From Sandaracinus sp. (GTDB lineage: Bacteria > Myxococcota_A > Polyangia > Polyangiales > Houyiibacteriaceae), in the NCBI GenBank assembly GCA_020633125.1, contig JACKEH010000009.1, positions 27,680-91,679 on the forward strand: a DNA stretch of 64,000 nucleotides, read 5' to 3'. Below the pieces are notes generated by a model. The model did no database searches and had not been told where the DNA came from. It worked only from the letters and a program-made list of their open reading frames with translations. The position numbers and the translations under genes were made by a program. The stretch's first letter is position 1. Every line of letters starts with the position of its first letter. Positions 26,201 through 49,415 of this stretch are shown in pieces.

Positions 26201-29200
26201 TCACTGCACGCGAAGCGTCTGCTCCGGCGTGCGCGCCACGACCGATCCGCCCGCGTCTTCGAGCTCGGCGGGTGGCAAACGCACCGTGCCCGCCAGACGC
26301 GCCACGAGCGCCAACGTCAGGTCCGCTGCGCCGTCGCCGAGCGCCACGACGAGCTCGTCGTCTTCCATCCAGGCGGCCTCGACGCGTGGATGCGCGCGCA
26401 GGGGCTCCAGCAGCACGTCGATCCCGCTCGGAAGGACTTGGCGCAAGGTGCGCGGCCCTTCGCCGGGTAGCCGCAAGACCGCGTTCGTCGGCGCGCCCAC
26501 GGCGAGCTCGTCGGGCAGACGTCGCGTCATCGCGGCGTTCTCGTCTCGCGTCGCGCGCTCGTCCCACACGAGGTGCGAGAGCTCGACACGGGCCTCCTGC
26601 GGCCCCGACCAACGCACCTTCACGCGATGCGTACCGGGCGCGAGCGCGAGCTCCCGAGCGCGAAGCGCGAGCGCCGCGGCCCACAGGTCCTCGCTCGACA
26701 CTTCGATGCGCTCGACGACCTCGCCGTCCACCTCGACTTCGAGCGTTCCGTCGCCTTCCGGCACCGGCCGAAGGCGCGCGAGTGCCCGCAACGCGTGAGC
26801 CGTTCCGCGTCCGCCGTGCGCGCTATCCCAGCTGTTGCGAGTCGAGAGGAGAAAGCGCGCCGCCGACGGCGCGACACGCTCGAAGCGACGCGGCGCGACG
26901 TCCTCGAGGACCTCCAGCGCGACGTCCACCGCCGCGACGTGCCCGGCCCACGCGTCGAGCCATTGCGGCTCGAAGTGCGTGAGGTTTCGAAGGTCGACCA
27001 GCCGCTCCGCCGCGCGAGCGACGAGGTTTCGGTAGCTCGAGGCATCGAGCGCGTGAAGAAACGCCGTGCAGTGACCGAGCACGCGCGGGTCGGTTCCGGG
27101 TTGCTCGAGCTCGGCGGTGCAGAGCACCCGCCACGCGAGCATCGCCTCGTGCTGATCGCGGCGCGGGCGAACCTTCACGACCGCGTGCGCGGCTTGGGCG
27201 GCCAGCGCGCGACGCTCGAGCTCGCTCTGACCGCGCCACGCCGCCATCGACCGCACGTCGAGGAATCCGTGGTCGTCCGCGGCGGCGAGCACGTAGTCGC
27301 GCGCGGAGAGCACCGCGCTCTCGGGCACCATCGCGCCGATCGCGTTCAAGGCCGAGAGCGCCTCGAGCGCCATCACCGAGACGTAGGGATCGCTGCGCCG
27401 CCCCGCGTCACGGGCAAAGCGGTTTCCGACGCCACCGTCGGCGTTCTGCGCGCTCACGAGCGCGAGCGCGAGCCGATCGAGACGCACGCGCAACGCCGCG
27501 CGCGCACGCTCGTTCAGCTGCCCCGTTTGTTCCAGGTAGCGCCACACCGCCGCGGCGCCGAGCGCGCGATGGGCCGCGCTGGCCGGGCCATCCGTCTCAC
27601 CTTCGAACGCGTCCAAGCCTTGAAGCAAGGGCACGCCGTTCGGCAGCGTCACCTCGAGGCGCACCACCTCGTAGCGCTCGGACGACACCGTGACCTCCGT
27701 CTGCACGTCGCGACCTTCGCGCGAGGTGCCGAAGGCACGACGCACGCTCGGCTCGCCGCGCGGCCGAACACGCACCGCGCGGCGCTCGACGTCGACGAAG
27801 TCGTCGGCCCGCGCGCTCGCCTCGAACGACGCCTCGCCTGCACGACGTGCATGCACCGTGAAGGTCGTCGCGACGGCGCCGTTTGCCGGCAGGTCGAGCG
27901 TCGCGGCCTCGCCTTCGACCGCGAGCGCTTCGCTGCGAAGGTCCAGCCGCGCCCGCACCGGCGTGTCCCCGAGGTTGCGCGCGACGACCGGCACCTCGAC
28001 CACGTCGCCGACGCCGAGCGTGGCGGGCACCTCGGCGCGCACCTGCAGGCGCTGCCGCACTGGGATGGTGGCGCGGGCGGTCGCGATGCCGCCTTCGCGA
28101 TCGGAGGCCACCACGGTGAGCGTCTGTTCGGTCAGCGTGTCGGGCAGCTCGGCATGCAGCCGCAACGTGCCGTTCTCGGCCACGAGCGTCGGCTCCCAGA
28201 GGCTCGTCTCCGCGAAATCCGTTCGAAGGACGATCGTCGTCGGCGCCGCGCGCGGGGTGCTCGGGCGACGTCCTCGAAAGCCTCCTGCACCACGTCCGTA
28301 GCCCGAGCCGGTTCCGCCCCCCGCGCCGTGTCCGATGGTGCCGAGGTTGCCGAGGCCGATGGTCCCTTCGCCCGTGCCTCCACCGCCCATGCCCGTGCCC
28401 GTCAGGCCCAACCCACCGAAGCCGAAGTTTTCGCCGATCGAATCGCCCATGAGCGCACCGAGCGCTCCCATCGGGTCGTTGCCGAGCGCGGTGCCGCTTC
28501 CGTAGCCACCGCCTCGACGCCGCGGCGGCGGCGGTCGACGGCCGTCGTGGTAGCCGAAGTTCGGCGGCCATCCGATGTCGTAGCGCTCGACGCCCCACGT
28601 GCGCGCGACCACCGGCCACGTGAGGGTCTGCGCACCGGTGCTCGCCAGCACCTTTCGCTCCGCGTTGTAGAAACGATCCCGCGGCGCGCGCTCGAGCGGA
28701 TCGAGCAACGCGAGCACCGCGGAGTCGACCACGCTGGCACCGACGAGCGCTTCGCGTGCTTGCCCGTCGCGGACGACACGAACCTCCGCGTCGATTCGCT
28801 CGCCCGGCGCAGCGGATTCGGGCAACCCGCCGAGCGTCACTTCGAGGCGCTGGCCCGGTTGCACCACGAGGTTCTGTCCGTCCGTGAGCAATCCGACGTC
28901 GGCCCCGCGCCGCCCCACCGTGAAGAGCGTGAGCAACATCGAGCCCCAGCTCGTCGCGTTCACGGTCGCACGCGCCAGAGGTTCGTCCCCGCCGCGTTCG
29001 ACCGGCACGAGGAACGAGTCGACGATCGCGCCCGAGCTGTCGACCACGTCTGCGTGCACGACCTCTTCGTTCGGCACGACGTCGCGGGGGAAACGCACCA
29101 ACACTTCGAAGGGTTCGCCCTCCGCGATCACGGTGTGCTCGACGGACGAGCGCATCGGAAGCACGGCTCCTCGCGGCAGGTTCGCGCGCGCGACGTCCTC

Positions 29201-38525: not shown

Positions 38526-39692
<1,167 letters not shown>

Positions 39693-39978: not shown

Positions 39979-41127
39979 TCACTCCGCGGCCGACGTGTCC
40001 GCCGGCCCCTGCGGGAGCTGCAAGGTGCCGTCACTCGTGCTCGCGGCCGCGGAGCCTTCGGGCGCCGGCCCGAGCATCACCGCGACCCACGCGAGGTCTT
40101 CGGTGTGGGCCAACCAGTTCTTGAGGAACATCGTGAGCGGGCCGGAGAGCAGCGCGCCGACCGGGCCGAGCAGGTAGCCCCAGAAGAGCATCGAGAGGAA
40201 GACGACCAGCGGCGAGAGGCCGAGCGCTTCGCCCATCAGACGAGGCTCGACGAGGCTGCCGATGATCGCGTTGATCACCGTGTACCCGCCCGCGACCGCC
40301 AGCGCGGTGCCCGGCCCGCTGATCACGAGCGCCAGAATCACCGGCGGGATCGACGCGATGATGCTCCCGACGGTCGGGATGAAGTTCAGCAAGAACGCGA
40401 GCACGCCCCAGAGGAGCGCGAGGTCGACGCCGAGGTAGTGACACCACACGCCCACGAGCACGCCCGTCGCGGCGCTGGTGCCGAGCTTCACGACCAAGAA
40501 GGCTTTGACCTCCTGCATCGTCACGCGAATCGCCGCGAGCTCTTCGCGGTCGTGCAGCACCCGGCGAATCTTGCTTCGCAGCGTGGTCGCCTCGACCAGC
40601 ATGAAGCCGGTCACGAAGAGCACGAGCACCAGCCGCGACACGACGGAGGCCAGGCTCTTGAGCGTGGCGCCGAGCGCCTCGACCAACGCGCCCGGGCTGG
40701 TGAGGCCGGGGATGATCTCGTCCGAGGTCTCGACGCCGTGCACGTCGAGCCACGCCGACGCCGAGAGGATCAGCTCCTCGATGCGCATCCGGTAGAGCTC
40801 TTGGCGCGCCCCCAGCTCGGCGATGGCGCCACCGAGCACCAACCCGACCGCGGTGACCGCGGCGGCGTCGAGCAAGAGGCCCGCGAGCACCGCGACGACC
40901 GTCGGGACCCTCCGTCGCTTGAGCCAGAGGACGAGCGGCGCGGTCGTGACCGCGAGAAAGCCCGCCAACAAGACGACCGACAGCACCGGCCGCGCCTCGG
41001 CCAGGCCGTAGGCGACGACGACGGCGGCGGCTCCGACGATGAACGCGTTCCTTCCGCGGCGATGGACCACGGCGACACGGTAGCAGGACGCCGCAACGCC
41101 GGCAGGAATCGCGCTCGCGGCCCCCAC
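39979..41127 (-). CDS. AI-2E family transporter (UPF0118/PerM-like)
   Basis: About 8 TM helices with a family-like C-terminal half (FLLNFIPTVGSIIASIPPVILAL...LVEPRLMGEALGLSPLVVFLSMLFWGYLLGPVGALLSGPL). The GTG start abuts the stop of the upstream kinase gene. Confidence 0.85.
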   Translation of the reverse strand: MGAASAIPAGVAASCYRVAVVHRRGRNAFIVGAAAVVVAYGLAEARPVLSVVLLAGFLAVTTAPLVLWLKRRRVPTVVAVLAGLLLDAAAVTAVGLVLGGAIAELGARQELYRMRIEELILSASAWLDVHGVETSDEIIPGLTSPGALVEALGATLKSLASVVSRLVLVLFVTGFMLVEATTLRSKIRRVLHDREELAAIRVTMQEVKAFLVVKLGTSAATGVLVGVWCHYLGVDLALLWGVLAFLLNFIPTVGSIIASIPPVILALVISGPGTALAVAGGYTVINAIIGSLVEPRLMGEALGLSPLVVFLSMLFWGYLLGPVGALLSGPLTMFLKNWLAHTEDLAWVAVMLGPAPEGSAAASTSDGTLQLPQGPADTSAAE

Positions 41128-42654
41128 TCAGCGGCGGGGCGCGGGAAGCTCGAAGGTGAAGCGTGCGCCCCCCTGGGGCCCTTGGCTCGTGTACGAAAGG
41201 TGACCGCCGTGGGCCTCCACGAGCTGGCGCGCGAGGCTCAGCCCGATGCCCAGGCCCGCGCGACCGCCGCTCGGCTTCTTCAGGTCGCGAAACGCGAGGA
41301 AGATGCGCTGGGTGTCTTCGGGAGGCAGCCCGATCGCGTCGAGCGTGACCACGCAGAACGCCCCGTCGCGCTCGCCCCGGAGCTCGAGCATGCCGTTCGG
41401 CGTCATGCGGACGACGTGCGCCAACACGCCCACGAAGGCCTGCACCATGCGCTCCCGATCGACGTCCATCGGAGGCCAGTCGGGCAGCTCGACCGAGATC
41501 TCGAGGTCGTGGATGGGCGCCGAGCGACGCGCGCGCTCGACCGCTTCTTCGATCACCTCGGTGAGCGAGGTCGGCTGCCGATGAATCGCGAGCCGTCCGG
41601 CTTCGAGGCGGGCCGTGTCGACGATCTCCGTGACCAGCTGCGAGAGCACCTCGCCGCTCTCGAGGATCGCGCGAACGCTCGTGAGCTGCTCGGCGTTGAG
41701 CGGACCGTCGACCTCCTCCGCCAGCAGATCCGCAAAGCCGGTGATCGAATGAAGCGGCGCGCGAAGGTCGTGGCTCATGTGCGCGAGGAAACGCGTCTTG
41801 ATGCGCTGGGTCTCCTCGACGCTGCGCCGCGCCTTCAACTGCGCTTGGGCGCGCTGCACGTGGCGTCGCGCGAGCGCCTGCACGCGATTGCCCGCGTCGC
41901 GCGCGAGCGAGGAGCGCAGCCGTGAGCTCGGAAGCTCGACGTCACCCTCCGGCGCGGCGGCGAGCGCGCGCACGTACGTCGTCAGCACCCGAACGTCGCG
42001 CGCGATGCGGCGCCCGATCGCCGAACCGACCACGGCCCCGATCCCGCCGAAGCCCAAGACCGCGACGACCGGGAGGATCGACTCCGAGGCGTCGTAGGCG
42101 ATGGGCACGGCGAGGACCGAGCCTGCGAGCAAGACGACCGCGGAGGCCACGCGCAGCGCGTAGCGCAACGCGAGCTGAGGGCGCTCGGGCACGGGAATGC
42201 GCTCGATGGGCAGCCGACGGAGACGACGGCGCCAGGACATCGCGCGCCACGCCAACGCGAGGTGGAGCGACGCGTTCTGCTGGAACGCGAAAGCGAGCGA
42301 GGCCGCCGCCAGCCGCTCGCCCCGCGTCAGACCGGAGACCACCCCGTCGCCGAGGCCGTCGACGAGCGCCACGACGAAGAGGCCGAGCACCGACACGAGC
42401 GCGGTCTCGAGGGGCAGCGCGTAGAGACCGGCGATTTGCGCTTCGGTGGGCCGACGCGCCTTCAGCGCTGCGCGACGCCGCCACGCCGATGCGGTCGCCC
42501 ACACTACGAAGACGAGGTTCATCGCGCCGAGCAAACGCAAGAACCCGAGCGCCTCCTCGCCTCCCCACGGAAGGGCGAGCCAAGCCACGGCAGCGGCCGC
42601 GGCGCTCGCCGCCAGGGTCAACGCGGCCGCGACCACCACGAGGCGCGCGATCAC
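41128..42654 (-). CDS. polytopic sensor histidine kinase with degenerate N and G1 boxes
   Basis: About 6 N-terminal TM helices. H-box FLAHMSHDLRAPLHSITGFADLL and G2 GRAGLGIGLSLARQLVEAHGG are present. The N-box position reads GVLAHVVRM (no Asn) and G1 reads LDAIGLP. The start overlaps the upstream stop (GTGA). Confidence 0.85.
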   Translation of the reverse strand: MIARLVVVAAALTLAASAAAAAVAWLALPWGGEEALGFLRLLGAMNLVFVVWATASAWRRRAALKARRPTEAQIAGLYALPLETALVSVLGLFVVALVDGLGDGVVSGLTRGERLAAASLAFAFQQNASLHLALAWRAMSWRRRLRRLPIERIPVPERPQLALRYALRVASAVVLLAGSVLAVPIAYDASESILPVVAVLGFGGIGAVVGSAIGRRIARDVRVLTTYVRALAAAPEGDVELPSSRLRSSLARDAGNRVQALARRHVQRAQAQLKARRSVEETQRIKTRFLAHMSHDLRAPLHSITGFADLLAEEVDGPLNAEQLTSVRAILESGEVLSQLVTEIVDTARLEAGRLAIHRQPTSLTEVIEEAVERARRSAPIHDLEISVELPDWPPMDVDRERMVQAFVGVLAHVVRMTPNGMLELRGERDGAFCVVTLDAIGLPPEDTQRIFLAFRDLKKPSGGRAGLGIGLSLARQLVEAHGGHLSYTSQGPQGGARFTFELPAPRR

Positions 42655-43748
42655 TGCGCCTCCGTGGGAAGAATCACGGTGAAGGTGGAGCCCTTTCCGA
42701 CCCGACTCTCGGCGGTGAGGCGTCCGCCGTGAAGCTCGACGAGGCTCTTGGCGATCGCCAAGCCGAGCCCCGCGCCCCCGCGACGGCGACGCTCCGGCGT
42801 GCTCTCCACGAAGCGGTCGAACTCCTCGAAGATGCGATCGAGCGCGTCCTCCGGGATGCCGATGCCCGTGTCCACGATGCGAATCGCGACGCCACCCGCG
42901 ACGCGCCCCACCTGAAGTCGGACCTCGCCCTCGTCGGTGAACTTGATCGCGTTGCTTCCGAGGTTGGTCACGATCTGGCGAAGGCGCTTCGGGTCGGCCT
43001 CGACCTCGGGCACGTCGCCGTCGATCTCGACCACGAGGTCGACGCTCTTGCCGCCACGAAGCCCACGAAGCTCGGCCGCGACCTGGCTGACGATGGCACC
43101 CGGGGAGACCCTCACGCGCTCGAGTCGCAGCTGATCCGTCGCCGCGGCGCTGAGATCCAAGACGTCGTTGAAGAGCGCGACGAGGTGCTCGCCGGCACCT
43201 CGGATGATCCGGAGGTCTTGGATTTGATCCGCGTTCAACGGCCCGTCGATCTCGCCGAGCAAGACGTCGGCGAATCCCAGGATCGCGTTGAGCGGCGTGC
43301 GCAGCTCATGGCTGACCGCTTGGAGGAACTCGCCCTTGACGGCTTCGGCGGCCTCGGCCTCGCGAAGAAGGCGCGCCTCACGCGAGAGCGAGTCTTCGAA
43401 GGCGCGACGAAGCGCGTCGAACGCACGCACCAGCTGCCCGAGCTCGTCGAGGGTGCGAAGCGAGTGGTCCGCGCTCGGGGCTTCGTCGTCGATCATCGCG
43501 CGAAGACCTTCGTCCACGCGCACGAGGTCGTCGGAGAAGTCGCGCCCCGCCAGCCACGCGGTGAACGACGCGAGCGCCAACGAGGCCGCGCCGGCGAGCC
43601 CGAGCGCGACGACGAACTCCGCCTGGCGGGCCCCGGCGGCGCCCACGCCGAAGAGCGCCGCCAGCCCGAAGACGCCGAGCCCGAGGCTGACGACGAGCCC
43701 CACGGTCGCGAGGACCAGGCCGGTGCGTCGCGGGGCCATCCGGCTCAC
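42651..43748 (-). CDS. sensor histidine kinase (canonical HisKA + HATPase_c)
   Basis: Two TM helices. H-box FLQAVSHELRTPLNAILGFADVL, N-box VTNLGSNAIKFT, G1 VDTGIGIP and G2 GGAGLGLAIAKSLVELHGG. Confidence 0.9.
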   Translation of the reverse strand: MSRMAPRRTGLVLATVGLVVSLGLGVFGLAALFGVGAAGARQAEFVVALGLAGAASLALASFTAWLAGRDFSDDLVRVDEGLRAMIDDEAPSADHSLRTLDELGQLVRAFDALRRAFEDSLSREARLLREAEAAEAVKGEFLQAVSHELRTPLNAILGFADVLLGEIDGPLNADQIQDLRIIRGAGEHLVALFNDVLDLSAAATDQLRLERVRVSPGAIVSQVAAELRGLRGGKSVDLVVEIDGDVPEVEADPKRLRQIVTNLGSNAIKFTDEGEVRLQVGRVAGGVAIRIVDTGIGIPEDALDRIFEEFDRFVESTPERRRRGGAGLGLAIAKSLVELHGGRLTAESRVGKGSTFTVILPTEAQ

Positions 43749-45409
43749 GCGTGAAGGCGCGATTCGCGCGGGGGCCGAGGGCGAGCGGGAACGGGCGAGG
43801 TGCGCTTTTCACGCGGCGCTTCGACGTCGACGACCCGCGCGACCCGAACGAGCGTCGGAAGGTCCACGAGGCGCGCGAGCCTTCCGGCGGGCCCTCGAAC
43901 GACCGCGAGGTCGGCGAACGCGGCGGAGACGAGGCGCTCGGCCGGGGTGGACTCGCGCGTGACGACGAGACCGACGAAGCTGGGCGCGAGGCCGGTGGGC
44001 CCCGAGCGTTCGGTGGCGAGCACGTCGAGGCGAAGCAATCCCGGCGCGCGAGAGGCGGTCACCAGCCGGAGCCGCGCGTCTTGAAGCGCGCCGTGGGTGT
44101 CTCGGTGCACCGCGAGCTGGAGCGCGAGCCCCGAGAGCTCGGTGGCGGAGAGGCGTTCGGCGAGGCGCACCAAGCGGAGGAGGCGCTCGTGGTGCGTGCG
44201 TGGCAGCCGGTGGCGTGTGACCAAGACGGCGGGAACCGCGGCGAGGAGCACGTCGGACGGCGTCAGCCCACCGAGCCTCGAGGCCGCGAAGAAGAGCGCG
44301 GCGAAGGTCGCCAGGCCCGCGGCGCCGGTCGCGTCGATCCACGCGAGCCCCGTGAAACGAGCGACGACCGTTCGGCGTCGGGCCTCGCGCAGCTCGTCGG
44401 CGCCGGCGCGTGACCAAGAACCCAAGCGCGCCGCGTGCACGTCCGCGTTGCGGACCAACACCGAGAGCACCACGGCCGCGAGGACGGCGAGGCGTTCGAG
44501 CTCGGCGTCGACGACGTGGGCCGCGAGGACACCTGCGACGAGGAGCGCTCCACGAAGCCACCACGGCATCGGGACGACGAATTTCGCGACCGCGCCGCGA
44601 CGCTTCGCTTCGCGCGAGAAGAGGGCGAACGCGAGCAACGCGACGAAGCCGACGAGCAAGGGGCCGCCTCGAGGCCGGAGCGGAGCGCGCCGCGCCGCCG
44701 CGGTGCTGCGCAGCGGGGCGGGCGTGGCCTCGACTTCGCTCGTGGTCGGCAGCGTCGCTTCGCCGAGACCGGCGGTCAGCGCGTCGCGTGGCAGCTCGAA
44801 GCCGAGCTCCCAGCTCAAGGTTCGCGGCAGGTGAGCGCGCCGCCAACGCAGGAGCGTGCGGTCGCCCTGCTCTTCGCGGGCGCGGGTCAGCGTGACCAGC
44901 GCGTCTTCTTCGCCGAGGAAGCGCGCGCCACGCGGCGCGTCCAGCGTGACCTCGACTCCGTCCAGCCCCGACTGCCACCCCGGGAACGTCCAGCTGGCGC
45001 GGGCGCGCTCGCCTTCGTTCACGAAGCGTGAGGCCAGGCTCGCGCGGTATCGAAGTCGAATCGTGTGATGGCCTCGCCTCGGCCCCGCGCGGCGCGGAAA
45101 GGTCAGCGTGACGCGGCCGTCTTCCGACGCGCTCGCCCGCGCGACGAGGCGCTCGCCTTCGTCCGAGACGGAGACCGGCGAGGTCTCGGTCAGCTCGAGG
45201 TTTGGGTCGAGACCCGCGATTTCCAGCGATTCGAGCCAACCGCCGCGCACGTTGACGCGAACCACGAGCTCGACGTCGAGGGTTCCATCGCCCTCGAGTC
45301 GCAACGCCGCAGAGGCGGTTTGAACGTGGGCGTCCGTCCACGCATGCGCCGAGGTCGCGCTCGCGAGGACGAGCGCGACCGATGCGAACAGGACGAGGCC
45401 GCGAGCCAC
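43745..45409 (-). CDS. hypothetical membrane protein (secreted beta-rich N-domain + TM helices; DUF2207-like layout)
   Basis: Signal peptide MARGLVLFASVALVLASATSAHA, an N-domain of about 230 aa, at least 3 TM helices and a cytoplasmic Arg/Leu-rich tail. The stop overlaps the downstream kinase start. Confidence 0.5.
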   Translation of the reverse strand: MARGLVLFASVALVLASATSAHAWTDAHVQTASAALRLEGDGTLDVELVVRVNVRGGWLESLEIAGLDPNLELTETSPVSVSDEGERLVARASASEDGRVTLTFPRRAGPRRGHHTIRLRYRASLASRFVNEGERARASWTFPGWQSGLDGVEVTLDAPRGARFLGEEDALVTLTRAREEQGDRTLLRWRRAHLPRTLSWELGFELPRDALTAGLGEATLPTTSEVEATPAPLRSTAAARRAPLRPRGGPLLVGFVALLAFALFSREAKRRGAVAKFVVPMPWWLRGALLVAGVLAAHVVDAELERLAVLAAVVLSVLVRNADVHAARLGSWSRAGADELREARRRTVVARFTGLAWIDATGAAGLATFAALFFAASRLGGLTPSDVLLAAVPAVLVTRHRLPRTHHERLLRLVRLAERLSATELSGLALQLAVHRDTHGALQDARLRLVTASRAPGLLRLDVLATERSGPTGLAPSFVGLVVTRESTPAERLVSAAFADLAVVRGPAGRLARLVDLPTLVRVARVVDVEAPREKRTSPVPARPRPPRESRLHA

Positions 45410-45459
45410 CCACCGACGCTATGCGGCGGCCGGGATCGACGCGAGTTTTCGGCGATCGT

Positions 45460-46428
45460 TCAGTAGGTTCGCATCCAGCTCGGCATGAAGAGCAGCCCGA
45501 AGAGCACGAGGCAGAGCCACGCGACTGCGCGGCGCTTCGGCGAGAGCTCGCCCTCGTCGGTCGGTGGATGATCGATGCCGCCCACGCGAGAGAGCGCGGC
45601 CAACACCAGCGCCCACAGGATCCAGCTCGCCCCCGCGCTCAGGTCCCGGAACACGAAGCTCCACGGAGCCTTTGCGAGCAGCGTGGGCACACCGTGCACG
45701 AGGCCCATCGCGATTCCGACCACCGGAAGCGCGCCGAGCACCCATCGCGAACGACGGTTCTGCGATTCGCCGAAGAGCCCGAACGCGACGTGCCCCCCGT
45801 CGAGCTGTCCGAAAGGGACGAGGTTGATCATCGTGACCAACAACCCGGCCCACCCCGCGAGCGCTACCGAGTTGAGGTAGATGTCGTGACCGTCGGGAAT
45901 CTCGCCGTGGGTGAGACGGAGCAAGAGCGCATAGAGGATCGAATGCCCCTCCAGCATGACGGGCTCTTCGAGGGATCGCGCTTCGATCGCACGCACCTCC
46001 GAGGTGGCGAGGCCGTACGCGAGGATCGGCAGCGCAACGATCAAACCCGCGAGCGGTCCAGCCGCGCCGATGTCGACCAAGGCGTCGCGGCGTGCGATGC
46101 GCTGACGAATCTCGATGACGGCGCCCAGGTTTCCGAAGCCGAACGGGATCGGGATGAAATGGGGCGGCGAGAGGTCGACGCCGTGGAGCCGACCGACGAC
46201 GTAGTGGCCGAGCTCGTGGGTCAAGAGGATCGCCAGGAGCGGAAGCGCGAAGACCCAACCGGCGAGCGCGTCGCGCGGCGTCTGGACGTCCACGCCTTCG
46301 AGCAAGGCGCCGCCGTAGAGGGTCGTGCCCATCGTGGCGACGAAGAGCGCCAACGGCACGCGCCACTCTTGCCACACGCTGCGGCGCGCCGGGCTCGGGT
46401 CCTGCCCCGCGGCTTCCACGTCGCTCAT
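45460..46428 (-). CDS. M50-family site-2 (intramembrane zinc) metalloprotease
   Basis: HELGHYVVGRLHG (HExxH) within a TM helix. The second motif is NLVPFGQLDGGHV (NxxPxxxLDG). Polytopic. ATG 46428 overlaps the stop of the upstream gene (ATGA). Confidence 0.85.
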   Translation of the reverse strand: MSDVEAAGQDPSPARRSVWQEWRVPLALFVATMGTTLYGGALLEGVDVQTPRDALAGWVFALPLLAILLTHELGHYVVGRLHGVDLSPPHFIPIPFGFGNLGAVIEIRQRIARRDALVDIGAAGPLAGLIVALPILAYGLATSEVRAIEARSLEEPVMLEGHSILYALLLRLTHGEIPDGHDIYLNSVALAGWAGLLVTMINLVPFGQLDGGHVAFGLFGESQNRRSRWVLGALPVVGIAMGLVHGVPTLLAKAPWSFVFRDLSAGASWILWALVLAALSRVGGIDHPPTDEGELSPKRRAVAWLCLVLFGLLFMPSWMRTY

Positions 46429-46985
46429 GTTCCGAGCGCCCGCCGAAGGGCGTCGAGGCGCACGACCAGCCGTCCGTCGAGCGTTCCGAGATCGGTCCGC
46501 GCCACGCAATCGCCACGCTCGAGCGATTCGTCTTCTTCGAGCCGCGCGCCGACGAGCTCGGGCAAGTCCGCGATCGACGCGCGGTCCTCGGGATGCACGA
46601 CCAAGACGAGGCGGGTGGCGCGTTTCGCGCGCTCGAGCACGCCACGCACGACGTCCCGCACGCGCTCCGGGTGCAACGCCAGCTCTGCGTGCACGAGCCG
46701 TTCGGCGGCCGCGACGGCCAGACGCTTGAGGTCGGCCTCCGACTCCTCGCGCGCTCGATCGACGATCGCGTGGGCGCGCACCAACTGCCCGGCCGCTTCG
46801 GCGCGGCCTTCTTCGCGGGCTTCGCGGCGCGCCACCTCGCGCAGCTTCTCCGCCTCGGCGCGCGCGTCGGAGAGCAGCGCGTCGGCGCGTGCTTCGGCTT
46901 CTCGGAGGAGCTCCTCGGCGCGCGCTCGGGCGTCGAGCACCTCCGCAGGGAGCACCTTGCGCCCTGCTCGAACGATTCGCGTCAC
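46425..46985 (-). CDS. FliH/SctL-family protein (type III secretion / rotary-ATPase stator-like)
   Basis: N-terminal charged coiled coil (ARAEELLREAEARADALLSDARAEAEKLREVARREA). The C-terminal part is LVLVVHPEDRASIADL...EDESLERGDCVARTDLGTLDGRLVVRLDAL, which matches the FliH/YscL/HrpE family pattern. Confidence 0.7.
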   Translation of the reverse strand: MTRIVRAGRKVLPAEVLDARARAEELLREAEARADALLSDARAEAEKLREVARREAREEGRAEAAGQLVRAHAIVDRAREESEADLKRLAVAAAERLVHAELALHPERVRDVVRGVLERAKRATRLVLVVHPEDRASIADLPELVGARLEEDESLERGDCVARTDLGTLDGRLVVRLDALRRALGT

Positions 46986-47665
46986 GCCTCGTCCTCCTCG
47001 AATTTCTCGAGACCGCCCGAGGTCCCCTCGAGCACGGTCCCCTCGAGCTCTGGCACGTCGAGGGCACGCAGCTCGCGCCCCGCACGCGCCGGTCCGTCAC
47101 CGGCCGCACCTTCGAAGCCCGCCACCATCGCGCCCCAAGCCTCGAGCGAAATCCCACCGAGCACGAAGGCCTTCACGAGGACGTCGCCGCGTGTGTCGCG
47201 TCCCGCCTCGAGATCGCGCAGCGTCTGCACCGCGCCGGCTTCTTCCGCGCCCAACCGCTCCAACGCGCGAGCGTAGAGCGCCTCGTCCCGGGTCGCTGCG
47301 AGACGGCGCCGCGCGCGACCGAGCTCGGTTCCGTCCGCGCGCCGCGGCGAGACCCGCAGCAAACGCCGCAGGGTGTCGGCCAACCCCGGCGGGGGCGCGT
47401 AGCGACGACGCGGGGCCGCCCCCGGAGCGCCGAGCAGCGCACGTACGCGGGCCGGCGCGGACACGAGACGCTCCGGCGTCGGCGCGGGTCGAACCCGCGC
47501 GGCCACACGTTTGGCGAGGGTTCGCGGGTCCGAACCACGCGCATCCAACGCCGTACGTAGCTCCGGGGAGACACCGTCCACCGCGCCGAAGAGGCACTCG
47601 GCCATCCGAAAGGCGTCGAGCATTCCCTCGCTCCAGCCGCCTCGGGCCATGTCGGGTTCACCCAT
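46982..47665 (-). CDS. hypothetical protein (227 aa)
   Basis: Its stop overlaps the FliH-like start (GTGA). The composition is Arg/Ala-rich but less extreme than the competing frames. No family recognised. Confidence 0.45.
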   Translation of the reverse strand: MGEPDMARGGWSEGMLDAFRMAECLFGAVDGVSPELRTALDARGSDPRTLAKRVAARVRPAPTPERLVSAPARVRALLGAPGAAPRRRYAPPPGLADTLRRLLRVSPRRADGTELGRARRRLAATRDEALYARALERLGAEEAGAVQTLRDLEAGRDTRGDVLVKAFVLGGISLEAWGAMVAGFEGAAGDGPARAGRELRALDVPELEGTVLEGTSGGLEKFEEDEA

Positions 47666-47689
47666 CGCGTCGCCTCGAGGTCGGGCTCG

Positions 47690-48610
47690 TCATCGCCGCG
47701 TGCGTCGACGCCACGTCGTCCAGGCCGCCAAGCCGACGACCAGGGCGAACGACGTCGAGCCGCCGGTACCCGCTGCCGAGACCGAGCAGGACTCGAAATA
47801 GGTGCCCTGCACCGGCTCGAAACACACGGGCTCCATGTCGGTGTCGGCGTTGCCCAGCCCGTCGACGGCGTGCACGACGATGCAAACCGGCGCGACCGCT
47901 TCGTCGTCCGACAACACGAACGCCATGGTGGTCTCGGCGGTCGCGAGGTTGCGCACGCGCGCACGAAGCTCGGGCGCACGCACGTTCGCACCACGCGTCA
48001 GGTAGAGCAGGTACTCGACGCTCCCCGGAGGACCGTCGTCCACGGCGGGATCGAAGCGCACGTCCACGCGAAAGCCGCGGCCGCCTTCGCACGGGCGGTC
48101 GACACGTTGGGTCGTCGGGGTGTCGATGGGACCGAGCGAAGGACTCTCGGTGTCACGACGCATCCCGGTGCGAAAGTTGAAGTCGAGGTCGGCCTCGGCA
48201 CCACGCGCGATGCCGGCAAAGGCGGAGCTCGCCGGCAGGTCGCCGTCGGGGACGAAGAAGAGCCATCGGTCGCCCACGATCTCGGCGCGGCCCGGCACCA
48301 GCTCTCCGGTGCGGTCGCAGTCGAGGATGTCCCCCGGGTCGCAGAGTCGAAGCTCGATGAGACCACTCGGATCGATCTCCGGCCCGAGCGCGCCCTCGCC
48401 GTAGAGGACCTTCACGTACGCATCGATGGTCACGTTCGAGGCGCCGCTCGCCGGCGTCACCTCCACCGGCCCTCGAAAGGGCGGCTCGTCGCAACCGACG
48501 CCCGCATCCTGAGCGACGGCCGAGCGGCCCAGCACCATCGACGCGAGCGCGAAGAGAAGAACGTATCGACGCACGGGCGCACTATACCCATGCCCGCCAC
48601 ACCGAAGCAC
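47690..48610 (-). CDS. secreted protein with MYXO-CTERM-like C-terminal sorting tail
   Basis: The likely start is GTG 48574, giving the signal peptide VRRYVLLFALASMVLGRSAVAQ. The C-terminus is SCSVSAAGTGGSTSFALVVGLAAWTTWRRRTRR (Cys, Gly-rich stretch, TM helix, Arg cluster). Confidence 0.65.
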   Translation of the reverse strand: MLRCGGHGYSAPVRRYVLLFALASMVLGRSAVAQDAGVGCDEPPFRGPVEVTPASGASNVTIDAYVKVLYGEGALGPEIDPSGLIELRLCDPGDILDCDRTGELVPGRAEIVGDRWLFFVPDGDLPASSAFAGIARGAEADLDFNFRTGMRRDTESPSLGPIDTPTTQRVDRPCEGGRGFRVDVRFDPAVDDGPPGSVEYLLYLTRGANVRAPELRARVRNLATAETTMAFVLSDDEAVAPVCIVVHAVDGLGNADTDMEPVCFEPVQGTYFESCSVSAAGTGGSTSFALVVGLAAWTTWRRRTRR

Positions 48611-48644: not shown

Positions 48645-49415
48645 GTGGAGCTGCGCCCCCGCAAATCCTACGACGGCGTGACCTCGACCCCGACCGCCAC
48701 CGCCGCTTCGCCCGAGCACCCGCCCGCCGATCGCGGCGCTTCCGAAAAAATCGGTCCGCTTCGTGCCATCGGTTGGCTCTTCGCCTTCGGGCTGCTCGCC
48801 GCCGGTCTGCTGGTCGGCGCCTTGCTCTATCGGCTGCTCGCGCCTCCCCCCGAGGCCCCCGCGACGGTCGAGACGGTCCGTTCGGGCGCCGCGACCGTGA
48901 CCGCGATTCGCGACCTCGCGCGGCTCCAAACCGCGACCTTCCACATGGAGCGGGTGATCGACCTGCAGCAGCGGCAGCAGGCGCTCTTCGGTTTGGTCGA
49001 GGTGCAGGACGCGATCTTGCTCGTGGCCGCGGCCGAGGTGTCGGCGGGCGTCGACCTCACGCAGATGCGCGACGGCGACGTGACGATCGATCCGGACGCG
49101 CACCGCGCGACGATCGTGCTGCCGGCCCCCGAGATCTTCGACGCACGCCTCGACAACGAGCGCACCTACGTGCACACGCGGCAGACCGACACGCTCGCCC
49201 GGCGCAGCGACACGCTCGAGACGCGTGCGCGACGCGCCGCGGAGGACGACCTCGAGCGTGCCGCCGTCGATGCGGGCATCCTCGAGCGTGCCCGAGAAAA
49301 CGCTCGCGCGGCGATCACGACGCTGGTCCGTGCGCTCGGCTACGACGAGGTCGAGGTGCGCTTCGCCGACCAACCGGCGACGAACGACACCATCGCGCCC
49401 GCCGCGCGCGACTGA
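48645..49415 (+). CDS. DUF4230-like membrane-anchored protein
   Basis: One TM helix (IGWLFAFGLLAAGLLVGALLY). Then VTAIRDLARLQTATFHMERVIDL...VSAGVDLTQM...IVLPAPEIFDARLD, typical of DUF4230 as I recall it. The start is uncertain. Confidence 0.65.
   Translation: MELRPRKSYDGVTSTPTATAASPEHPPADRGASEKIGPLRAIGWLFAFGLLAAGLLVGALLYRLLAPPPEAPATVETVRSGAATVTAIRDLARLQTATFHMERVIDLQQRQQALFGLVEVQDAILLVAAAEVSAGVDLTQMRDGDVTIDPDAHRATIVLPAPEIFDARLDNERTYVHTRQTDTLARRSDTLETRARRAAEDDLERAAVDAGILERARENARAAITTLVRALGYDEVEVRFADQPATNDTIAPAARD

Follow-up and report, generated by a model that had tools for sequence, protein, structure and literature searches.

A probable SctL stator gene of a dispersed type III secretion apparatus within a composite, genus-specific gene block of a Sandaracinus-like myxobacterium

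Genes for type III secretion systems (T3SS) are a textbook case of tight clustering. The needle-less system of Myxococcus xanthus, termed T3SS* (MXAN_2434-2464), lacks the secretin, needle and translocon and forms a single cluster in which SctL and SctN occur together (PMC10433427). The "Myxo" loci of non-flagellar T3SS (NF-T3SS) are clustered as well, and the T3SS of Chlamydiales is multi-locus (Abby & Rocha 2012, PMC3459982). T3SS* genes have also been noted in Bradymonadia and Polyangia, with no discussion of their arrangement (PMC11509652). Here, we analyze a stretch of 64,000 nucleotides (hereafter, the window) from a Sandaracinus-like Myxococcota metagenome-assembled genome (MAG; GCA_020633155.1, 57% complete), the stretch being positions 27,680 to 91,679 of the forward strand of contig JACKEH010000009.1, assembly GCA_020633125.1. 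Within the window, a block of eight minus-strand genes (39979-48610) includes one for a 186-aa protein of the SctL/FliH stator family (46425-46985, minus strand). This protein is probably a genuine SctL stator of a needle-less myxobacterial T3SS-type apparatus whose core genes are dispersed in this order, Polyangiales. The block is a composite, genus-specific putative operon that embeds one piece of a dispersed T3SS*, and not a new obligate module.

Relative to the described systems, the arrangement is both familiar and distinct. As in M. xanthus, relatives of the window's genome encode SctJ, Q, R, S, T, U, V, N and L and belong to the non-flagellated Myxococcota; unlike in M. xanthus, all core genes save SctS-SctT lie singly amid housekeeping genes, and SctL is coupled to an uncharacterized gene, g2, and to an M50 site-2-type metalloprotease gene. 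Similarly to Chlamydiales, the core is split over several chromosomal loci yet conserved. The chlamydial system occupies at least four loci, three of them with core genes, whereas here nine genes occupy eight loci that lie up to megabases apart in the complete genome of one relative, G015.

The SctL protein and the scattered secretion core

The 186-aa protein consists of an N-terminal charged coiled coil followed by a C-terminal FliH domain (PF02108, 56.6 bits against a cut-off of 24.1), and its best NCBIfam match assigns it to the injectisome type. It had been regarded as an orphan in the original prediction; at genome level it is not one, as relatives carry SctN, V, U, R, S, T, Q and J away from SctL, scattered over the genome. 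The search among relatives (kin of the window's genome, mostly draft assemblies) covered the core genes SctJ, L, N, Q, R, S, T, U and V. SctN scores above the family cut-off in 35 of 41 relatives, including all three same-genus genomes, and SctL, mostly a single-copy gene, co-occurs with it in 30 of those 35. Both are absent from four near-complete, T3SS-less genomes. In near-complete relatives that carry the scattered set, the M50-linked SctL is its sole SctL.

All nine core genes were recovered from G015, G017 and G003, and the eight besides SctV from G016 and G036. In G015 (complete, 9.07 Mb), they fall into eight loci spread over 8.3 Mb: SctU at 437,907; SctS and SctT at 477,850 and 478,165, the sole pair still together; SctR at 915,649; SctN at 2,586,453; SctQ at 4,841,308; SctV at 5,652,361; SctJ at 8,328,903; and the M50-linked SctL at 8,751,433. 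G017, G003, G016 and G036 harbor the scattered set only, each gene on a different contig. A Pfam scan of the flanking genes in G017 placed SctN among an SNF2 helicase, a lycopene cyclase and a Rieske/DUF5914 gene; SctU beside PriA and TsaD; SctR beside YqeY, an extracytoplasmic function (ECF) sigma factor and MreB; SctQ beside CtaA and a Ser/Thr kinase; and SctV beside an Omp85-like protein, a Rieske oxygenase and a Ser/Thr kinase. No second core gene was detected by tblastn within 6-10 kb at 17 scattered loci; the clustered locus of G015 returned four core genes in 13 kb. SctN, SctV and SctR are 72-76% identical across families, an identity that indicates strong purifying selection.

By homology, SctL dimers would tether the ATPase hexamer of SctN, whose gene lies elsewhere, to SctQ, the platform beneath the SctRSTUV export gate, and g2 would probably act together with SctL in this tethering. 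The scattered core is a more interesting result than the eight-gene block itself. That the order keeps the nine tested core genes, though scattered, challenges the idea that assembly or regulation needs clustering. Detection tools that depend on clusters could under-count such systems, and Polyangia genes annotated as an "orphan FliH/SctL" should be taken to belong to a dispersed T3SS*. We found no description of single-gene T3SS scattering, or of an SctL-M50 operon, in the literature searched, which is not proof of novelty.

Solitary SctN loci in eight genomes (L042-L049) adjoin lycopene-cyclase-family and Rieske/DUF5914 genes, an association that was Pfam-confirmed in G017. By eye, SctN has similar neighbors in several further genera, at times including a FAD-oxidoreductase-like gene and DnaJ.

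Separation of SctL from SctN

The 186-aa protein has the same domain architecture as the stators of the FliH-FliI and SctL-SctN pairs, and in sister classes the gene for its orthologue directly precedes SctN; in this order, unlike in those pairs, the stator and ATPase genes are unlinked. In a phylum-wide comparison, the closest SctL homologues outside the order were 32-44% identical over their full length, with SctN directly downstream. The SctN proteins of these SctL-linked loci are in turn 55-66% identical to the solitary SctN of G017. Within the order, SctN stands alone elsewhere and M50 holds the position downstream of SctL. A search with a 6-sequence SctL alignment returned 5 relevant loci. 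In f17, a distant family inside the order, SctL is likewise followed by M50, with a thiolase gene close by as in the window (L082-84, L089, L090).

A maximum likelihood tree of 33 SctN sequences comprised 17 solitary proteins, eight that are SctL-linked and eight from second clusters. The solitary SctNs group into one clade (support 100/98), whose sister group consists of the SctL-linked SctNs from other classes (joint support 100/100); the second-cluster SctNs stand apart from both in a clade of their own (100/100). Read most simply, these findings reflect the vertical descent of a single T3SS*-type system whose SctL-SctN pair would have split once near the base of the order. With its two genes side by side in sister classes and apart here, the pair offers a clean natural experiment.

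Some relatives (G015, G006, G008, G011, G013, G026, G029 and G037) harbor an extra SctL-SctN pair, and the SctNs of these pairs are those of the separate second-cluster clade. In G015, the extra pair is part of a second, conventionally clustered T3SS (C1:5,593,000-5,609,600; L052, L111) with SctJ, L, N, Q, R, S, T, U and V.

The eight-gene block and its neighborhood across the order

Our ORF (open reading frame) analysis of the window agrees exactly with the original prediction of eight co-directional minus-strand genes and of the junctions between them. The first gene, g1 (47690-48610), encodes a secreted protein and is separated by a 24-nt gap from g2 (46982-47665; 227 aa, uncharacterized family). 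A 4-nt overlap joins g2 to the SctL gene, and another joins the latter to M50 (45460-46428). After a 50-nt gap, g5 (43745-45409; a 554-aa membrane protein) overlaps by 4 nt with HK1 (42651-43748), a canonical histidine kinase. HK1 overlaps by 4 nt with HK2 (41128-42654), a histidine-kinase-like pseudokinase, which abuts the gene for an AI-2E family permease (39979-41127). On the convergent side, the block is bounded by a thiolase/FadB pair, of which the thiolase gene (38538-39692, plus strand) carries Thiolase_N/C domains. On the divergent side, upstream of the block, lies a DUF4230 gene (48822-49415, plus strand; PF14014, 117 bits), followed by mlaEF; the position of the DUF4230 gene beside g1 is conserved within the window's genus.

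All eight genes were also called by a caller based on GC content at third codon positions (GC3) and by NCBI annotation of the source record (GCA_020633155.1, contig JACKEF010000011.1). NCBI places the starts of g1 (294 aa), HK1 (362 aa) and the AI-2E gene (363 aa) later, which opens gaps of 5 and 57 nt at two of the "coupled" junctions. The largest intergenic space inside the block is 50-57 nt. A promoter and terminator scan, uninformative in DNA of 70% GC, returned 0 promoters and 1 terminator-like site against 3.9 expected. Two absences reported previously were borne out: no T3SS gene besides SctL, and thus no SctN, was found among the window genes scanned (23882-63751), and a tblastn search with CheY returned no receiver domain, and hence no response regulator, in the window or in 20 related loci.

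Those 20 loci, each of 10-20 kb, were used to score the neighborhood. SctL is adjacent to g1 in 20/20 (mostly divergent), to M50 in 16, to g5 in 15 and to the kinase pair in 11; the AI-2E gene is adjacent in a single locus, L023, from the window's own genus. Most relatives feature two divergent units, with g1 (often accompanied by HK1-HK2) facing g2-SctL-M50-g5. The complete single-strand layout of eight genes was seen in G001 only, the sole other same-genus genome with a contig spanning the block. Conservation of gene order, on which the original prediction staked its case, thus extends to the core neighborhood, which is kept across the order. The 4-nt start/stop overlaps of g2-SctL-M50 recur across families in many relatives.

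The neighbors are nevertheless gained and lost independently of the T3SS, and the eight genes are therefore not one obligate module; a new eight-gene module around an orphan stator gains no support in that form. G005 and G021 (99-100% complete) are without SctN, SctL and g1, yet retain g5, M50 and HK-HK2 together; a different large ORF, GH15-like by our reading of its sequence, occupies the site of g1, g2 and SctL. Their genus (g3, of the same family, with genomes of 4-5 Mb) carries SctL in 0/11 genomes. Conversely, SctL and SctN are kept in G036, G028 and G037, which have no M50 match at E<=1e-10, and the M50 gene of G029 lies 230 kb away. Neither g5, present in 36/41 relatives including T3SS-less ones, nor g1, present in 32/41, strictly tracks the T3SS, and the AI-2E gene is linked in one genus. 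M50, g5, HK1 with the pseudokinase HK2, g1 and AI-2E would thus be membrane or envelope genes that share a long-lived neighborhood with SctL. They probably share expression with SctL in the window's genus, where they are co-oriented with it and would form an envelope signaling and proteolysis unit of their own, and they are probably not obligate parts of the secretion machine.

Several observations weigh against this interpretation. The SctL equivalog model TIGR02499 scores 78.0 bits against a curated cut-off of 78.7, i.e., 0.7 bits short. The window's own assembly yielded SctL, SctR (contig C88) and SctV (contig C45) as its only core genes, and SctN, SctU and SctQ were sought there and not recovered (its SctR and SctV are 74-75% identical to those of G017). 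We attribute these gaps to the 57% completeness of the MAG, which is not proven. For SctN, the absence says nothing, because this MAG gives no match whatsoever and is without even the lower-scoring matches, taken as F1-ATPase subunits, that every other genome gives. Finally, g2-SctL-M50 overlaps over much of the order and SctL-M50 adjacency reappears in f17; as judged from gene order, this persistence would exceed the usual chance synteny of myxobacteria, and some functional tie could remain. Because SctL-M50 coupling is so unusually persistent, we keep two further explanations in consideration.

The first, which we regard as unlikely, is a facultative coupling. The cluster would be a unit for envelope or contact sensing and proteolysis, made up of surface protein g1, the inner-membrane proteins g5 and M50, and HK1 with pseudo-HK2. 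This unit would regulate or service the dispersed T3SS, and the siting of SctL and g2 within it would confine production of the stator to times of unit expression. The adjacency of g1, M50, g5 and the kinase pair to SctL, the overlapping junctions and the SctL-M50 arrangement of f17 are consistent with such cross-talk, as is the minimal-loop topology of HK1, typical of kinases that sense via membrane partners. The independent gain and loss of components and the lack of a linked response regulator in the window and the 20 loci argue against it. No connection of a site-2 protease with a T3SS appears in the literature searched, and none is known to us.

The second explanation, the new module of the original prediction, holds that SctL and g2 left the T3SS and now serve as a cytoplasmic coiled-coil adaptor or regulator of M50. 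M50 does occupy the place that SctN holds in other classes, and the overlapping junctions suggest translational coupling of g2-SctL-M50. We consider such exaptation improbable: it would leave the scattered T3SS of G017, G003, G016 and G036 with no other available SctL, and it is at odds with the shared presence and absence of SctL and SctN described above, with the retention of M50 without SctL in G005 and G021, and with the persistence of SctL in three genomes without an M50 match.

Still less credible is that the genes share no biology and are mere neighbors, with separate promoters for sub-units and tight junctions reflecting compact packing. The alternative starts that abolish two coupled junctions, and the relatives that mostly hold the same genes as two divergent units or apart, would fit this explanation; the 4-nt overlaps conserved across families at g2-SctL-M50, and the lack of any intergenic space above 50-57 nt in the block, would not. 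Finally, we give very little credence to a scheme in which SctL, with g2, serves as a physical dock between the ATPase complex of the dispersed T3SS and a complex of M50 and g5 in the inner membrane. Intramembrane proteolysis and type III export would thereby be coupled, mechanically or by regulation (e.g., by cleaving a membrane-anchored substrate such as g1, or a checkpoint protein, as the export gate engages it), with the kinase/pseudokinase pair reporting assembly state.

Two lineages with other arrangements are of note. Genus g3 may represent a natural T3SS-loss lineage useful for comparison. In a Myxococcota MAG (L055; GCA_054018495.1, JBPLZA010000047.1, 764-12013), overlapping g2-SctL-M50 genes are followed by VWA, BatA/BatD-like, DUF58 and MoxR genes rather than by g5 and the kinases.

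Proteins encoded beside SctL

The protein most closely tied to SctL is g2, the only neighbor for which this holds. In nearly all of the M50- or g5-linked loci examined, its orthologue immediately precedes SctL and has a stop codon that overlaps or abuts the SctL start. The family comprises 112 cluster representatives in a library of 1.8 billion proteins, and its conserved motifs are W..LDGF.LA, P.RARALL and P.RRGY.PP.GL..L.R, together with a C-terminal AGREL.E. The protein is predicted to be cytoplasmic and, in an AlphaFold2 (AF2) model, all-alpha with 13 helices. Profile searches returned no Pfam or PDB sequence match, and Foldseek returned no PDB match with E<4 for a model whose mean confidence (pLDDT) is only 68. 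The suggestion of an SctK-like fold accordingly gained no support from the sequence searches or from this low-confidence model. Judged by its position, g2 is most likely a lineage-specific SctL partner, and the family is a candidate new cytosolic T3SS component.

In lineages with adjacent SctL and SctN, the g2 hidden Markov model matches no ORF upstream of SctL; by eye, these ORFs belong to a different helical family. Those in other classes (L077, L085, L086, L088) are helical and of ~200-350 aa, and may be the SctK-position proteins of their lineages. In family f17, a short ORF upstream of SctL may match the N-terminus of g2. The codon statistics of g2 are weak, and a GC3-rich antisense ORF of 223 aa (46889-47560, plus strand), whose GC3 equals that of the sense frame, lies inside it. 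Shadow ORFs are typical of DNA of 70% GC, and we rejected the antisense frame as a real gene: it reaches 37% identity and 47 bits in relatives, against 60% and 186-194 bits for g2, and would thus appear to be a shadow ORF.

The family labels of the original prediction held by profile for FliH/SctL, M50, the histidine kinases and the AI-2E permease, and failed for g5 and g1. M50 matches Peptidase_M50 (PF02163) at 76 bits against 27.2, has ~6 transmembrane (TM) helices and retains intact HELGH and NLVPFGQLDGGH motifs; HExxH and NxxPxxQLDGGH are invariant in 17/17 orthologues. The protein is probably an active intramembrane protease. Like the site-2 proteases RseP, SpoIVFB and MJ0392, it combines HExxH and NxxPxxxLDG in a polytopic membrane protein. 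Unlike them, it is devoid of PDZ (by Pfam scan) and CBS domains, no anti-sigma or pro-sigma substrate is encoded next to it, and its similarity to solved site-2 proteases is marginal (archaeal structure 3B4R, E 0.56).

The g5 protein, described earlier as DUF2207-like, has no Pfam family at E<=0.01 and no PDB sequence match. In an AF2 model of pLDDT 83.8, residues 26-207 form a periplasmic beta-sandwich and residues 429-527 a cytoplasmic alpha/beta domain; the protein also has a signal peptide and 4-5 TM helices. Its fold likeness is instead confined to the N-terminal domain, which resembles the N-domain of M1 aminopeptidases and OST1/ribophorin (Foldseek E ~1e-7). The g1 protein carries a signal peptide, a Big_5 (SbsA-type) Ig-like domain, matched in 7/14 orthologues (best E 7e-10), and a conserved Cys-rich domain. 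A profile search against PDB sequences gave nothing significant. Its tail comprises an invariant Cys, a Gly/Ser-rich stretch, a TM helix and an Arg cluster, a layout kept in 14/14 orthologues. The tail appears MYXO-CTERM-like but sub-threshold (TIGR03901, 18.3 bits against a cut-off of 20, with weak matches in 4/14 orthologues). The AI-2E permease matches PF01594 at 181 bits against 34.3, and NF008930 at 216 against a subfamily cut-off of 318.

Finally, the kinases form a conserved pair. HK1 contains HisKA (61 bits) and HATPase_c (105 bits) domains, and all four boxes (H, N, G1, G2) are preserved in 11/11 orthologues. Its two predicted TM helices, joined by a very short outer loop, are of the intramembrane-sensing type. 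HK2, with ~6 TM helices, also contains HisKA and HATPase_c, the latter at merely 55.7 bits. The degeneracy noted originally is evident in 9/9 aligned orthologues, and HK2 is a conserved pseudokinase because the N-box Asn and the G1 DxGxG are lost and the H-box His is kept. Kinase/pseudokinase pairs in two-component signaling likewise combine a protein that keeps the DHp His without the ATP-binding boxes with a complete kinase. The present pair differs in having no linked cognate response regulator, and the HK1-HK2 partnership is putative. HK2 adjoins an intact HK1 in every genome examined.

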